Shown: piece by piece, positions 3,712-24,225 of the stretch
How the letters are laid out: each line of letters begins with the position of its first letter
Numbering within the stretch: position 1 is the stretch's first letter
Assembly (NCBI GenBank): GCA_048937405.1
Contig: JBHLNF010000001.1
Span: forward strand, 987,114-1,051,113
DNA length: 64,000 nt
From: Promethearchaeota archaeon
GTDB lineage: Archaea > Asgardarchaeota > Lokiarchaeia > Sigyniarchaeales > SOKP01
Direction: 5' to 3'
Program-made: the position numbers and the translations under genes
Notes under the pieces: generated by a model
Told to the model about the DNA's origin: nothing
Database searches by the model: none
Seen by the model: only the letters and a program-made list of their open reading frames with translations

Positions 3712-4299
3712 ATGCAATTATATCTAATAACGGAATCTGGATCTTTAAGAAAAGTCAATAGAGTAGATTTTAATGAAAACAAAGTATTTCTAATTGATGA
3801 TATTAGAACATTATATTTATGGTTTGGATTAAAAGCTTCTGAGAAAAAAAAAAAAATAAGTCTTGAAAGAATCGATAAATTGAAAGCTCAAAGAAAAAAA
3901 ACACCAGAACTTATAGTGTTAAATCAAAATAAAGAGTATGGTTCATTTTTAGCGATTATGGATGTTATAAGAAAAGGGTTGGATGTTGGTGCTGCTCTTG
4001 AAAGAAGACCTGAATTAAAAATTCAATACAATGATACTCAAGAACTTATCGAGGCGGGAATAGATCCAGATTTTGAAGGTGAAATTACTATTGCTGCCCA
4101 CAATCTTGCTCAAGAAAACCACTCTTATGAAGATTTATGCAAAAAACTAGCTGAAATACAAATGAGATTAATAAAAGAGGATGCATCTGAAAAAGAAATT
4201 GAGAAAAAAACAGAGAAAATATATAAATCTTCATCAACATATGAAGAACTCTGCTGGTTGATTGCTGAATTAAGCAAACTTCTTGAGAGAAAACCTTAA
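3712..4299 (+). CDS. Single gelsolin-like domain protein with helical C-terminal extension
   Basis: KVFLIDDIRTLYLWFGLKAS matches the gelsolin repeat core (VFILD...IYVWxG); C-terminal repeated SYEDLC/TYEELCWLIAE helices. Confidence 0.65.
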   Translation: MQLYLITESGSLRKVNRVDFNENKVFLIDDIRTLYLWFGLKASEKKKKISLERIDKLKAQRKKTPELIVLNQNKEYGSFLAIMDVIRKGLDVGAALERRPELKIQYNDTQELIEAGIDPDFEGEITIAAHNLAQENHSYEDLCKKLAEIQMRLIKEDASEKEIEKKTEKIYKSSSTYEELCWLIAELSKLLERKP

Positions 4300-9616: not shown

Positions 9617-9988
9617 TTATTTTTTTATCTCTTCAATTTTTTTAACAACATCATTTAATGCGTTTTCATTTCCAGAGCCGACATTTTCAATAGCAATTGC
9701 ACTTGAAGATACATTGATTCTAATCACATTTCCAAGTTCTTTTTTAGTTGATAAATAACCATAGGGAATTCCTTTCTCTTCACAGAGAAGTGGAATGTGA
9801 AATAAAATTTCTGGAGGAGTTACATCTTCAGCCATAACAACCAATTTTGCTTGAACTCTTTCAATAGATTTAGTTACTTCATTCATACCTTTTCTAATTT
9901 TTGAATCTCTTGTTTCTGCTATTGTTGTTAAAGTATTCTTGAGCTGATTTTTTAACTTTTCAGGTATTTTAAATTTAACATATGAAAT
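9617..9988 (-). CDS. rpl7ae: 50S ribosomal protein L7Ae, probably starting at ATT (9988-9986), 123 aa
   Basis: Frame continues upstream of the tracked ATG through IRKG and SYVKFKIPE, the conserved L7Ae N-terminus; in-frame TGA at 9997-9995; no ATG/GTG/TTG in that stretch. Confidence 0.93.
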   Translation of the reverse strand: MSYVKFKIPEKLKNQLKNTLTTIAETRDSKIRKGMNEVTKSIERVQAKLVVMAEDVTPPEILFHIPLLCEEKGIPYGYLSTKKELGNVIRINVSSSAIAIENVGSGNENALNDVVKKIEEIKK

Positions 9989-9994
9989 CTTTAT

Positions 9995-10036
9995 TCATCT
10001 CCTTCAAATATATTTAATTAAAGATATATTTTCATA
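9995..10036 (-). promoter_or_regulatory. rpl7ae leader: SD-like GGAGATGA plus GA-flanked hairpin (possible kink-turn)
   Basis: mRNA reads UAU-GA-AAAUAUAU-loop(10)-AUAUAUUU-GA-AGGAGAUGA; 8-bp stem closed by GA on both strands; canonical stem weak. Confidence 0.4.
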
Positions 10037-10140: not shown

Positions 10141-10372
10141 ATGATTATACCTATTCGCTGTTTTTCATGTGGTAAGCTCATAGCTCATGTCTATAAACCT
10201 TACCTTGAGATGATAGAAAAAGGAGAGCCTTCTGAAAAGGCTTTTAAAGAGTTAGGAATCGAGCGATTCTGTTGTAAACGCATGATCGTAAATTAGTAAG
10301 CATTTAAGCTTTCTAAGCGTATGTCATGTGGACCTAATAGATGAACTCCTTAAATTTCCGAGATTGCAATGA
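10141..10372 (+). CDS. rpoN: RNA polymerase subunit Rpo10 (RpoN/RPB10), two exons: 10141-10291 and 10323-10372, 66 aa
   Basis: Joined translation MIIPIRCFSCGKLIAHVYKPYLEMIEKGEPSEKAFKELGIERFCCKRMIVSHVDLIDELLKFPRLQ has the CxxC and CC zinc ligands and the SHVDLID motif; the unspliced frame stops at TAG 10294-10296. Confidence 0.93.
10292..10322 (+). other. 31-nt bulge-helix-bulge type intron in rpoN pre-mRNA
   Basis: Outer helix 10279-10285/10324-10330; central 4 positions 10286-10289/10317-10320 (one U-U); 3-nt bulges 10290-10292 and 10321-10323; inner helix 10293-10301/10308-10316; cuts after the 2nd nt of each bulge restore AGT-CAT (Ser-His). Confidence 0.82.
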
Positions 10373-10395: not shown

Positions 10396-11681
10396 TTAAG
10401 AGAAATGATCTAAATATTTTCTTTTGAATTTTATAATCTTTCTATTAAAATTTAGATCCCAAATCTTATTTTCTACTCTCTTCCAATATGAATGTGGCAG
10501 TGTTTCAACACTAAATTCATCACATAATCTCTTAAAAAGATCAAAACTAACACCAAAAAACTCGGCTAATTTAGTTCTAGGTCCAAGATTAATCAACTCA
10601 TCTATGATATCTTTTTTCCCTATTTTTTCACGAAGAACTTCATAAGTATATCTCCCTCCCTTCATTGGATAAAATACTCTTTTTCTTTCCATACTGAATT
10701 CAAATGATTCCATCATAAAGTTAAATAATATTGGACCGATTCTTAAATACCAATGGTCTTTTATATCACAGTTTTTTATCCAAACTTTTTCTCTCCCTGC
10801 AATTTTCTTATTTTTAACTTCATGTCTTAAATTAAATTCTTCCTTAATTTGCTCAAGAAATTGCTTATTTGAATTATGAATTATAGGCGCTCCTTCTTCA
10901 CCATCCCCATCATAAAAGCCGAGTAATACTGACAAAGCCACTTTATACATTAAATTTCTAAAAAAGCCAACTCTTAAACATTTTCCTTCTTTAAAATCTA
11001 AAAATCCCAATTTTATTAAATCCTTAATCATTGGAATACATCCAATTCTAATTCCATATCTTTCTGGATATTCTCCTGATTTTTTTCTTATCCTCCTATC
11101 AATTTTATGTTCAATTTTATTTATAACATGTAATTCATTACGAAATCTCTCAATAACCTTGGAATCCCTCTTTTCTAAAAAAAGGCCAATATGTCCATCC
11201 TTAGAAATAAATCCATCAGCAAGTAACAATCCAAAATAATAACCTTTGTTTGTTGTATTAAGTAATTTAAAGTAATGTTTTTTTAAATTAGGATTATGAA
11301 GATGCCATTGCTGTTGTCGATACTCAAGGAGTTGATTTTTTTCAATATAATTATAAATTAATTCTTTACATTTTTTAATATCTTTATTGCTCAACTTTTT
11401 TGATAAAGATTTGATAAAATCTATTAATTGCTCAACTTTTTTGATAAAGATTTGATAAAATCTATTAATTGATCTTTTGAAAATTTAAAATAGGGATTAT
11501 GCTTTGGACTATTTGAATTCTTTATCCTAAACCGAGTATCTCTTATATATCTAATATGCATACCCAAATATTCAGAAAATTTGTCATATGAAAGTATTTT
11601 TCTATGTATTTTACTAGTTGATACTAATTCTGATATTTCTTTACGTAGATCTTCTATGAAATCTAATGTAGAATATTCCAT
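10396..11681 (-). pseudogene. Two-motif LAGLIDADG homing endonuclease, frameshifted (414 aa if repaired)
   Basis: Motifs YYFGLLLADGFI and VLLGFYDGDG; ORFs 11424-11681 and 10396-11394 fuse in frame (...SLSKKLSNKDIKKCKE...) when one 41-bp repeat copy is removed. Confidence 0.85.
11386..11471. repeat. Perfect 41-bp tandem duplication with ATTG microhomology
   Basis: attgctcaacttttttgataaagatttgataaaatctatta at 11386-11426 and 11427-11467, followed by attg. Confidence 0.97.
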
Positions 11682-11852
11682 AATTGTCTATGAAAATTGA
11701 ACTGATATAGGATTTTTAGTTAGAAAATTAGTTATTCCAATATTTATGATAAATGAGAGTGATTGATTATTAATTTCATCTCTAAAGTGAGACAAAGAAT
11801 CTTAGATATAATATAGATTTAAAATAGGTTTGAAAAATTAGATAAAAATTCT

Positions 11853-11897
11853 ATAGATTTATTCGATGAATTACTTAAATTTCCTCGATTACAATAA
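11853..11897 (+). pseudogene. Orphan duplicate of the rpoN 3' end
   Basis: Encodes IDLFDELLKFPRLQ* versus VDLIDELLKFPRLQ* at 10328-10372. Confidence 0.9.
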
Positions 11898-11936
11898 TAT
11901 AATTATTTATAAATTAATAGAAGTAATAAGCAAGAG

Positions 11937-12119
11937 TTATTGTTTCCCGTAATGGGCAGTCCATCTCGTTTTTCTTGCTTTTTTATTATAATCTAACATT
12001 GATTTACGGCATTTGTTAGTACAAAAGTTCAAGACTGTACCATCTCTCTTTACAAACATGAGACCTCGGCCTATAGGAATATCATAACCACAAAAACTAC
12101 ATTTTTTTACCTTTACCAT
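11937..12119 (-). CDS. rpl24e: 50S ribosomal protein L24e
   Basis: CSFCGYDIPIGRGLMFVKRDG...FCTNKC...RKTRWT; ATG at 12119. Confidence 0.96.
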   Translation of the reverse strand: MVKVKKCSFCGYDIPIGRGLMFVKRDGTVLNFCTNKCRKSMLDYNKKARKTRWTAHYGKQ

Positions 12120-12148
12120 TAGTAACACATATAAAAATTGTTTAAACT

Positions 12149-22773: not shown

Positions 22774-24225
22774 TTACTTTCTAACAATTTCTTGATGTAA
22801 CTTATCAATAAACTCAGAAAAATTAACTTTAGAAAACTTGGTATTCAATAATGGGGTTAAGAGAACAGGAATAAACTTCTCGTCTTCATAGACAGGGATG
22901 ATTTTGAACAATCCTTTTTTTCTTAATTGAAATGCTGCCTGCCATTCATCAGAAACAGCTTTAGATTTAAAACTATTTTCAGAGCAAAAAAGTATGAACA
23001 CGTTGCATTTTTCAAGTGTTTTTTCCATATATTCTACTATATTTTCTCCACTATTTTCCTCCCAATAAAAAACCTCATTAATGTCTGGATAGGTCTCTAA
23101 AGATTTAGCAACATCATTAATTTGAAAGTATGGAGAGTCTAAAGTAGAATAGCTTAGAAAGATGTTCAAATCTTTTTTTTTACCTAATTTTACTTTTTTT
23201 CCAAGCTTTTTTAGAGGAATAGGACTTATATCTAAGGGCTGAACCTCATCCTTCAAAAAAATAATTGAATCTTTTTTTATTTGGGCATTAAGTTGTTTAG
23301 TGAAAATCATTTCTTCAAGTAAAACTCTGAGTTCTTTTAAATCGATCTCAACTTTGGACTGGATATCCTCAAATGATAACTCTTCATAAACTGAAGTTAA
23401 TTTTTTAATGTTAGTAATGAATTCCTTTTTTTTATTTTCTTTTTCCCTACTATAATTGACTATCTCTTGTCCTTTTTGATCATAATAACGAGATCCAAAC
23501 TTTTTTTTAATCATTTTTTCAGCAGGATTCTTAAATAGACCTAATTGACTTAAATTACTTAAATGAGAGAGTCCTGAAATTTCAATAATCTTATTTGCTG
23601 TAAAGTTAAGAAATTGTAAATTCTTTAAAGTTTCTAAACCTTCAATTTGACTCAATTTATTATAGGAGAGATCTAATTTTTTTAAACTTAGAAGTTTTTC
23701 TAAGCCCTCTATTTTTGAAATTGAGTTTTTTGATAAATCCAAAATTTCTAAATTAGTTAAATAATCTAAACCATCAATTGCTACAATACTATTTTCACTT
23801 AAGTATAATTCATTCAAAATCGGTAAATTATCTAATCCAGTTATTTCATGGATGACGTTATTCTGCAATTTTAATAATCTTAAGTTAATAAGCTTGTCTA
23901 AACCTTCAATTTCAATTATCATATTGTTATTTAGGTTTAAGATTTGCAAATTTAATAGAGTATTAAGTCCGCTTACTTTTTTTATCAGATTATTTTGGAG
24001 GTTAAGAGCTTTTAAATTATATAAATTTTCAAGGCCCCTCATATCGCTAATTTGATTGTAAGATAAATCTAAAACCTCTAAATTCTTTAATTTCTCAAGT
24101 TCAATTATTTCTTCAATATTATGAATTTTTTTCTGACTAATTCTAAGTGTAGTTACTTTTCTGTTAAAAAAGTCTATATAATTCTTTTCCATTAGAAAGG
24201 TCTTATTTTTATATCTTACTGACAT
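22774..24225 (-). CDS. LRR - PCI-like winged helix - TIR domain protein
   Basis: About 9 SDS22-type LxxLxLxxNxIxxIxGL repeats; VYEELSFEDI...LEEMIF..QLNAQI; IFLSYS...FILFCS..SFKSKAVSDEW...IIPV. Confidence 0.88.
   Translation of the reverse strand: MSVRYKNKTFLMEKNYIDFFNRKVTTLRISQKKIHNIEEIIELEKLKNLEVLDLSYNQISDMRGLENLYNLKALNLQNNLIKKVSGLNTLLNLQILNLNNNMIIEIEGLDKLINLRLLKLQNNVIHEITGLDNLPILNELYLSENSIVAIDGLDYLTNLEILDLSKNSISKIEGLEKLLSLKKLDLSYNKLSQIEGLETLKNLQFLNFTANKIIEISGLSHLSNLSQLGLFKNPAEKMIKKKFGSRYYDQKGQEIVNYSREKENKKKEFITNIKKLTSVYEELSFEDIQSKVEIDLKELRVLLEEMIFTKQLNAQIKKDSIIFLKDEVQPLDISPIPLKKLGKKVKLGKKKDLNIFLSYSTLDSPYFQINDVAKSLETYPDINEVFYWEENSGENIVEYMEKTLEKCNVFILFCSENSFKSKAVSDEWQAAFQLRKKGLFKIIPVYEDEKFIPVLLTPLLNTKFSKVNFSEFIDKLHQEIVRK

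Follow-up and report, generated by a model that had tools for sequence, protein, structure and literature searches.

Why should an archaeal genome with a single rpoN (rpo10) gene keep a second copy of that gene's last codons about 1.5 kb downstream, and why should the two copies differ almost exclusively at silent positions? The question arises in a 64,000-nt window (the whole stretch of DNA that was analysed) from a Promethearchaeota archaeon (Asgardarchaeota; Lokiarchaeia), taken from positions 987,114-1,051,113 of the forward strand of contig JBHLNF010000001.1 in assembly GCA_048937405.1. The window's own genome, referred to as G000, comprises 4.47 Mb in 29 contigs at 28.8% GC and, like the genomes with which it was compared, is a metagenome assembly. 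Coordinates of the features discussed below are collected in Table 1.

Table 1. Features of the split rpoN locus, in window positions
Feature	Position	Strand	Remarks
rpoN (rpo10) exon 1	10141..10291	+	...ERFCCKRMIV and base 1 of the Ser codon
Upstream co-conversion tract	10275..10291	+	CGC ATG ATY GTA A in all intron-bearing alleles; differs from sister species
Predicted bulge-helix-bulge (BHB) mini-intron, 31 nt	10292..10322	+	covariation in ten alleles
In-use exon 2, (S)HVDLIDELLKFPRLQ*, probable cassette-borne replacement end	10323..10372	+	
Predicted LAGLIDADG homing endonuclease, C-terminal 332 codons	10396..11394	-	motifs GLLLADG and LLGFYDGDG
41-nt tandem duplication	11377..11458	none	frameshifts the endonuclease gene
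Endonuclease, N-terminal 85 codons	11424..11681	-	73% identical to residues 1-85 of P0002
Right-hand cassette spacer	11682..11855	none	ends ...TCTATA
Orphan rpoN end, DLFDELLKFPRLQ*, probable displaced original 3' end of the host gene	11856..11897	+	
Native rpoN-rpl24e spacer, 39 nt	11898..11936	none	length as in G044 and G050
rpl24e	11937..12128	-	Pfam Ribosomal_L24e, E 1.6e-19; native convergent neighbour of rpoN

Two copies of the rpoN end

Exon 1 matches the Pfam family RNA_pol_N (PF01194; E 4e-22) over profile positions 1-49 of 58, and a whole-genome search found zero copies of rpoN elsewhere in G000, leaving this locus as the sole one. Read without interruption, the frame that starts at 10141 stops after ...ERFCCKRMIVN. 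The rest of the conserved end, (S)HVDLIDELLKFPRLQ*, follows 31 nt further on in a different frame and terminates at 10372. Gene callers miss rpoN, or call it truncated, in genomes that carry this arrangement.

The second copy, here called the orphan, comprises the last 13 rpoN codons and a stop. Codon by codon, with the in-use end (10331-10372, DLIDELLKFPRLQ) given before the orphan (11856-11897, DLFDELLKFPRLQ) wherever they differ, the two read GAC/GAT, CTA/TTA, ATA/TTC, GAT, GAA, CTC/TTA, CTT, AAA, TTT, CCG/CCT, AGA/CGA, TTG/TTA, CAA and TGA/TAA. They are identical at 32 of 42 nt, and the ten mismatches affect eight codons; the change is silent in seven of these (TGA/TAA included) and a replacement in one (ATA>TTC, I>F). 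On both strands of the 64-kb window, the orphan alone matches the in-use end at 26 or more of the 42 positions. An initial annotation of this DNA had reported the same match, the single I/F change and the otherwise synonymous differences, all of which were reproduced on re-reading both copies.

The strength of this silent bias was gauged by neutral simulation, in which ten random substitutions were placed in 42 nt (200,000 trials per setting), with substitution either uniform or AT-biased and each copy in turn taken as the ancestor. In every setting, outcomes with at most one changed residue and an intact stop made up 0 to 5e-6 of the trials (less than 1 in 100,000). The rarity of such a pattern argues that both copies diverged under selection as coding sequence, and it bears out the annotation's contention that a local duplicate decaying neutrally would not show this bias. 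The annotation had also read the origin of the two ends from AT-ending versus GC-ending codons. That argument does not hold, since the GC3 counts of 4/13 for the in-use end and 1/13 for the orphan are indistinguishable (Fisher p 0.32), and both are compatible with the host GC3 of 0.21. As for the in-use end itself, 19 of 48 nt sites vary among 12 alleles, all of them silently and with an identical protein, so that this end is, judging from the aligned alleles, under purifying selection and probably translated. Its Arg codon is AGA, as against CGN in most intact congeners.

The resident end and the carriers among congeners

Position provides the clearest indication of which end belongs to the host. 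The orphan is followed by rpl24e and rps6e, both on the minus strand, and lies 39 nt (stop to stop) from rpl24e, whereas the in-use stop lies 1564 nt away from it. The intact rpoN genes of G044 and G050, which belong to the rpoB clade of G000, are likewise 39 nt from the rpl24e stop. Of the 27 intact congeners that have a downstream rpl24e stop, 26 show a distance between 37 and 99 nt, and one, G004, has 527 nt. The flank leads to the same conclusion. Free-end-gap alignment of 3' flanks inflates background identities in AT-rich DNA, and global alignment was used instead to compare the orphan's last 11 codons plus spacer with the 27 intact genomes whose rpl24e lies at most 120 nt from the rpoN stop. 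In all three testable cases the best of the 27 was the rpoB sister, with identities of 0.78 (G000-G044), 0.86 (G016-G014) and 0.93 (G047-G066), as against 0.60-0.69 for the in-use end and the sequence that follows it.

The 42-nt ends themselves point the same way, with smaller margins. Mean identity to 38 intact congeners is 35.0/42 for the orphan and 32.4/42 for the in-use end, and among the nearest relatives the respective counts are 34 and 31 in G044, 34 and 33 in G050, and 34 and 35 in G051. Over the last 15 nt, however, the sister G044 matches the orphan at 15 of 15 positions and the in-use end at 11. As identity over 42 nt favours the orphan weakly, the case for the resident end was built on position, flank and the last 15 nt, which together support the view that the orphan is the resident 3' end of rpoN, displaced and still 39 nt from rpl24e. 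The annotation's proposal that the orphan is the host's original end and that the working end arrived horizontally is strengthened by the 39-nt position and the three sister matches, and the sister species resembles the orphan more closely than it does exon 2.

A survey of the genus covered 54 genomes, 48 of them with rpoN, and found the gene split in 10 of the 48 and in two metagenome contigs; in the other genera of the order, all 14 genomes with rpoN have it intact. Placed on a tree built from 1122 nt of a single gene, rpoB, in 47 genomes, the ten carriers each have an intronless sister and require ten changes in all; grouping the carriers in a single clade was rejected by the AU test (p 2.8e-62). 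The cassette core (flank, intron and in-use end; 97 nt) is 97.9% identical between G008 and G052, two hosts whose rpoB genes are 82.6% identical.

Exon 1 was compared in the sister pair G000-G044 and in nine further pairs. In the window, it is G044-like up to about 10251-10275, and from about 10275 to the intron it differs from G044 at seven sites, a switch that gives a position to the crossover anticipated in the initial annotation. Carriers in general have a host-like exon 1, and the tracts common to them are the upstream one of Table 1 and, downstream of the intron, GT CAT GTR GAT YTN ATA GA. In G055 and G059, the distal rpoN end equals that of the sister again. Taken together, the scattered carriers, the discord between cassette and host, and the mosaic alleles are the signatures of co-conversion expected from homing.

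The carriers differ in what accompanies the intron. The order of intron, in-use end, minus-strand nuclease gene and orphan recurs in G008, G052 and the contig LAZR01002210.1. In G016, G018, G024 and G047 the orphan lies 55-150 nt beyond the in-use end with no nuclease gene in between, while G055 and G059 possess the intron only. The orphan is absent in G001, G055, G059 and the metagenome contig L124, and truncated in G008. Its 5' boundary is different in every genome; the least-trimmed orphans, those of G047 and of L126 (LAZR01002210.1, an LCGC14 contig), begin exactly at the intron site with GTAAGT.... A motif of the form ...TATATA/TCTATA stands directly 5' of the orphan in G016 and in the window, and one GAT codon plus 6 nt ahead of it in G018; it also occurs in G001, a genome without an orphan.

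All eight orphans show degradation of their six proximal codons, and seven retain an intact distal DELLKFPRLQ*. We attribute this contrast to recent arrival combined with damage or selection at the junction, and constraint on the distal orphan DNA is possible. The orphan of L126, from LCGC14 sediment (minus strand, about 3890-3950), keeps the full junction; a 9-nt stretch contains three non-synonymous changes (SHVD to SYMG), and the distal ten codons are free of them. These junction changes could reflect mutagenic repair at a cut site or selection against such a site.

Intron and endonuclease

BHB introns are rare in archaeal protein-coding genes, cbf5 being the textbook case. The ten split alleles of rpoN all have their insert at one common site, and a BHB fold laid over the ten pairs 98.8% of cells, with compensatory changes at four pairs. 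Among the shuffled alignments, 9 of 500 attained as many compensatory pairs and none equalled the real alignment in paired percentage or covariation score; all slid registers of the BHB alignment scored lower. In the window, the predicted fold has an outer helix (10281-85 with 10324-28), bulges AAA and AUG, a central helix UCGU/GCGU of three pairs and a U-U mismatch (four pairs in G055), and an inner hairpin. The minimum-energy fold of the window sequence is shifted in register because of T10322 and gives a non-BHB structure with CGUA/UAUG pairing. At this site, the second base of the 3' bulge, the window and L124 have T, most alleles have A and G055 has G; the shift might affect the efficiency of splicing.

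Cutting after the second bulge base would yield ...GTA A^GT CAT... and hence IVSHVD, colinear with 38 intact alleles. A bulge variant in G016 produces a Gly codon, just as in its sister G014 (IV(S/G)HVD). The insert of G047 measures 30 nt and the others 31 nt, and the same junction results from both lengths, which favours RNA splicing over frameshifting. Programmed frameshifting or readthrough was considered and rejected because of these two lengths together with the in-frame tandem TAG TAA of G047. G000 encodes two EndA-family proteins and one RtcB, and we infer that 10292-10322 is spliced as a BHB intron, with cutting by EndA and ligation by RtcB.

The gene between the two ends is broken by the 41-nt tandem duplication, whose copies are 93% identical over the frame reported by the repeat search; removal of one copy brings both endonuclease frames into register. 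Its 332-aa piece is 79% identical to an intact 414-aa relative (P0002). Searched alone, this fragment found no Pfam match, and a PDB sequence search returned nothing useful; the gene was placed in the LAGLIDADG family because intact orthologues score above the 22.5-bit cut-off of PF14528 (LAGLIDADG_3), at 24.4 bits in G008 and 23.6 in G024, and because of the motifs GLLLADG and LLGFYDGDG, which are invariant in the alignment with orthologues. Minus-strand orthologues occupy the position between the ends in four cases: intact in G008 (504 aa; L041:1392-2903) and LAZR01002210.1 (433 aa), interrupted by one stop in G052, and broken into three pieces in G001. The orphan follows the nuclease gene in three of the four and is absent in G001. 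The orthologues are 52-79% identical.

Two further placements are not predicted by a simple cassette model. In G012, a 912-aa ORF with an orthologous nuclease domain (L044:2957-5692) is convergent with an intronless rpoN and lies about 100 nt after it; the junction codons of this rpoN are altered (ATT ACG TCT CAC GTC GAC), the orphan is missing, and rpoN and the nuclease gene together stand in inverted orientation with respect to rps6e/rpl24e. This genome may represent a free-standing nuclease stage in which immunity was gained by substitution. In G024, an intact orthologue resides upstream of rpoN, on the same strand (L045:2533-4029).

Mechanism, alternatives and comparable systems

We consider it probable that the orphan is rpoN's original end, displaced by a homing-endonuclease cassette that came from a congeneric species by homing with co-conversion. 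From left to right, such a cassette would comprise a tract of flanking exon 1, the 31-nt BHB mini-intron, a copy of the rpoN end (last 16.7 codons and stop) and, encoded on the other strand, a free-standing LAGLIDADG gene; it would have entered rpoN at or near the intron site, GTAA^GTCATG. The nuclease would cut intronless rpoN at the exon junction, a site that the intron would interrupt in carriers, and a carrier allele would serve as template for repairing the break. Were the right-hand side of the break to pair with the rpoN end inside the cassette, copying would be confined to the intron and short flanks, as may have occurred in G055 and G059. If joining took place past the nuclease gene, the whole cassette would be copied and the recipient's end left downstream as an orphan, an outcome that would account for the window, G008, G052, G016, G018, G024, G047 and the LCGC14 contig. 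The window, with its nuclease gene broken by the 41-nt duplication and the first codons of its orphan lost, would then represent a stage of degeneration within a homing cycle. The differences between the two copies are nearly all silent, on this reading, because each copy was the working rpoN end of a separate lineage until the transfer. Candidates for the source of the end duplication are end joining and an older, long intron. Integration by a Campbell-type single crossover was also entertained and rejected, as it predicts an orphan that starts in exon 1 upstream of the crossover, and no such start was seen.

It is conceivable, instead, that cassette and orphan are old, with a single origin in the ancestor of the genus followed by many precise losses, the orphan being an ancient duplicate. 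Two of the carriers, G000 and G001, do belong to the same five-member rpoB clade, G018 and G024 are related to each other as well, and identities of 52-79% among the nuclease orthologues suggest some age. Ten carriers with intronless sisters, however, would require precise losses far in excess of gains, and vertical descent does not explain why the orphan and spacer follow each host's sister species, why alleles are mosaic, with exon 1 and distal ends resembling the host, or why 98% identical cores (G008 and G052) reside in hosts with 83% identical rpoB. Moreover, the silent-only distal differences of eight orphans are unlike those of an old pseudogene, and we hold this history to be improbable. 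Less credible still is a selected alternative terminal exon, spliced to exon 1 in some transcripts. Its appeal lies in the intact distal part and stop, the silent differences, and the acceptor-like GTAAGT... start kept in the G047 and L126 orphans. The window's orphan, though, has neither SH(V) codons nor a UCAUG acceptor strand, and pairing of its upstream region to the 5' splice-site half is at background (-5.2 kcal/mol against a mean of -5.5, with 47% of windows as good), in contrast to -13.1 kcal/mol for the real acceptor. The orphan is, in addition, missing or truncated in five of the split alleles, its 5' boundary varies by genome, its proximal codons are degraded in 8/8, and the product would have the I>F change and a length or sequence differing between species. 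The initial annotation had already ranked this possibility lower on the grounds that the orphan lacks both the SH codons and a BHB partner; both absences were confirmed, and the want of an acceptor structure leaves the idea weak for this window.

A local duplicate of the gene end that arose in G000 and then decayed neutrally would fit two copies 1.5 kb apart on the same strand, and a duplicated uvrA end in the same genome, with 8 non-synonymous and 3 synonymous codon differences, resembles this kind of event. We give it almost no credence for rpoN, given one residue change in ten differences with the stop kept (a combination that neutral simulation produced at a rate below 1 in 100,000) and a native flank attached to the orphan and not to the in-use copy. 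The annotation's own caveat, an assembly chimera of two co-occurring strains, has in its favour the 29-contig assembly and its estimated contamination of 5.7%. It is equally hard to credit, as the same order of parts occurs in at least seven other independent assemblies, including LAZR01002210.1, the window sits deep within a contig longer than 1 Mb, and a chimera is not expected to put a nuclease gene repeatedly between two same-strand copies.

Displacement by a homing cassette has its closest analogue, judged by the likeness of the arrangements, in the mORF gene hybrids of fungal mitochondria, known from atp6 of Allomyces macrogynus and from atp6, atp9, cox2 and nad3 of Glomus (PMC3630166). 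In these hybrids, a foreign C-terminal part of the gene comes with an endonuclease ORF, and the gene's native part, which resembles relatives more closely, stays behind downstream (PMC3630166). The rpoN locus shares this anatomy, with the ends at 10331-10372 and 11856-11897 flanking the endonuclease ORF (10396-11681). In both systems, the endonuclease ORF and a foreign 3' end of the target gene travel together, the native end stands downstream and is nearer to close relatives, and the protein is nearly unchanged while the nucleotides have diverged. The foreign end becomes the working one in the hybrids and probably does so in rpoN. The rpoN case differs in that it concerns a chromosomal core transcription gene of an Asgard archaeon and not an organelle, it would rely on a 31-nt BHB intron and not on in-frame fusion to connect the replacement end, its nuclease gene is free-standing and on the opposite strand, and its duplicated end is short, at about 14-17 codons.

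Introns of the BHB type in archaeal rRNA genes encode LAGLIDADG enzymes such as I-DmoI and I-PorI, and they are mobile. They share with rpoN the combination of a BHB intron with a LAGLIDADG nuclease, and they also have short nuclease-free derivatives, of which the 16S mini-introns of Thermoproteales provide a case (PMC4496867). The rpoN nuclease gene, unlike theirs, is outside the intron, downstream of the stop and antisense, and the host is an mRNA. Collaborative homing, described for the free-standing F-CphI and the psbA group I intron of cyanophage S-PM2 (Zeng, Bonocora and Shub 2009, via the account in PMC6083498), offers a further likeness: as presented in that account, a free-standing nuclease gene adjoins the intron-bearing gene, and the intron is proposed to interrupt the nuclease site and to be mobilised by the nuclease. 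Intron-only alleles with short co-conversion tracts (G055 and G059) would fit such trans-mobilisation. Set against the same account, the rpoN intron is a predicted protein-spliced BHB intron and not a ribozyme, the linked nuclease is LAGLIDADG and not Endo VII-like with a cleavage specificity that is here predicted, and an orphan gene end forms part of the unit. The pre-mRNA intron of cbf5 in Crenarchaeota (PMC2738675) resembles that of rpoN, according to the abstract, in being of the BHB type, in interrupting an archaeal protein-coding gene and in having been gained and lost patchily; the abstract mentions no nuclease gene or displaced exon, and lineage and gene differ. Within the titles and abstracts searched, whose coverage is incomplete, no rpoN BHB intron or nuclease-linked displaced exon was found in archaea.

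A broader reading has, in our estimate, roughly even odds: that the tRNA-type (BHB) mini-intron carried by the mRNA for this core RNA polymerase subunit is currently mobile, that a free-standing LAGLIDADG nuclease drives it in trans between species with the intron as the immunity determinant, that the carried gene end is what lets the nuclease ride along, and that displaced ends are the footprints of this traffic. Were it correct, rpoN would provide a direct natural example of the gain of a BHB intron in archaeal protein-coding genes. The gain of such introns has so far been argued mainly from distribution patterns. The orphan would be the physical footprint of one gain event, marking the insertion point, distinguishing resident from arrived DNA, and tying the event to a nuclease. 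The congeners would supply the stages (nuclease beside an intronless gene, full cassette, decayed nuclease, intron plus orphan, and intron only), and this series makes a BHB-intron homing cycle testable in the archaeal lineage closest to eukaryotes. Short duplicated gene ends near LAGLIDADG genes could also be used as a search signal for more cases.

A second set of displaced gene ends occurs in G000 at 924764-931274 of contig C7 (loci L121, L120 and L003), beside a paralogous LAGLIDADG gene whose 476-aa product scores at the PF14528 cut-off. There, uvrA is followed by an orphan head of aIF5B, then by about 4 kb with three unrelated genes, then by an orphan end of uvrA, and lastly by the nuclease gene and the in-use aIF5B. 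The orphan aIF5B head spans about 80 codons, has an in-frame stop and shares 79% amino acid identity with the in-use head. The orphan uvrA end is identical to its counterpart at 190 of 201 nt, and the similarity extends 68 nt beyond the stop; with its mostly non-synonymous differences, this copy looks like a decaying local duplicate, unlike the rpoN case. A tblastx self-scan of the six LAGLIDADG loci of G000, a method insensitive to ends as short as that of rpoN, detected duplicated gene ends at uvrA/aIF5B alone. Since both the aIF5B head and the uvrA end are duplicated beside the paralogue, the same nuclease family may remodel other essential genes too.

Two other observations concern the rest of the window. 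The rpl7ae frame at 9617-10006 gives 89 aa from its first ATG, whereas the stop-to-stop frames of congeners run to about 125 aa (LKISYVKF...), which suggests a non-canonical start. Finally, the minus-strand gene at 22774-24225 encodes a 483-aa protein in which leucine-rich repeats (Pfam LRR_4, E 1e-41) precede a TIR domain (TIR_2, E 9e-15), a combination that recalls immune receptors.
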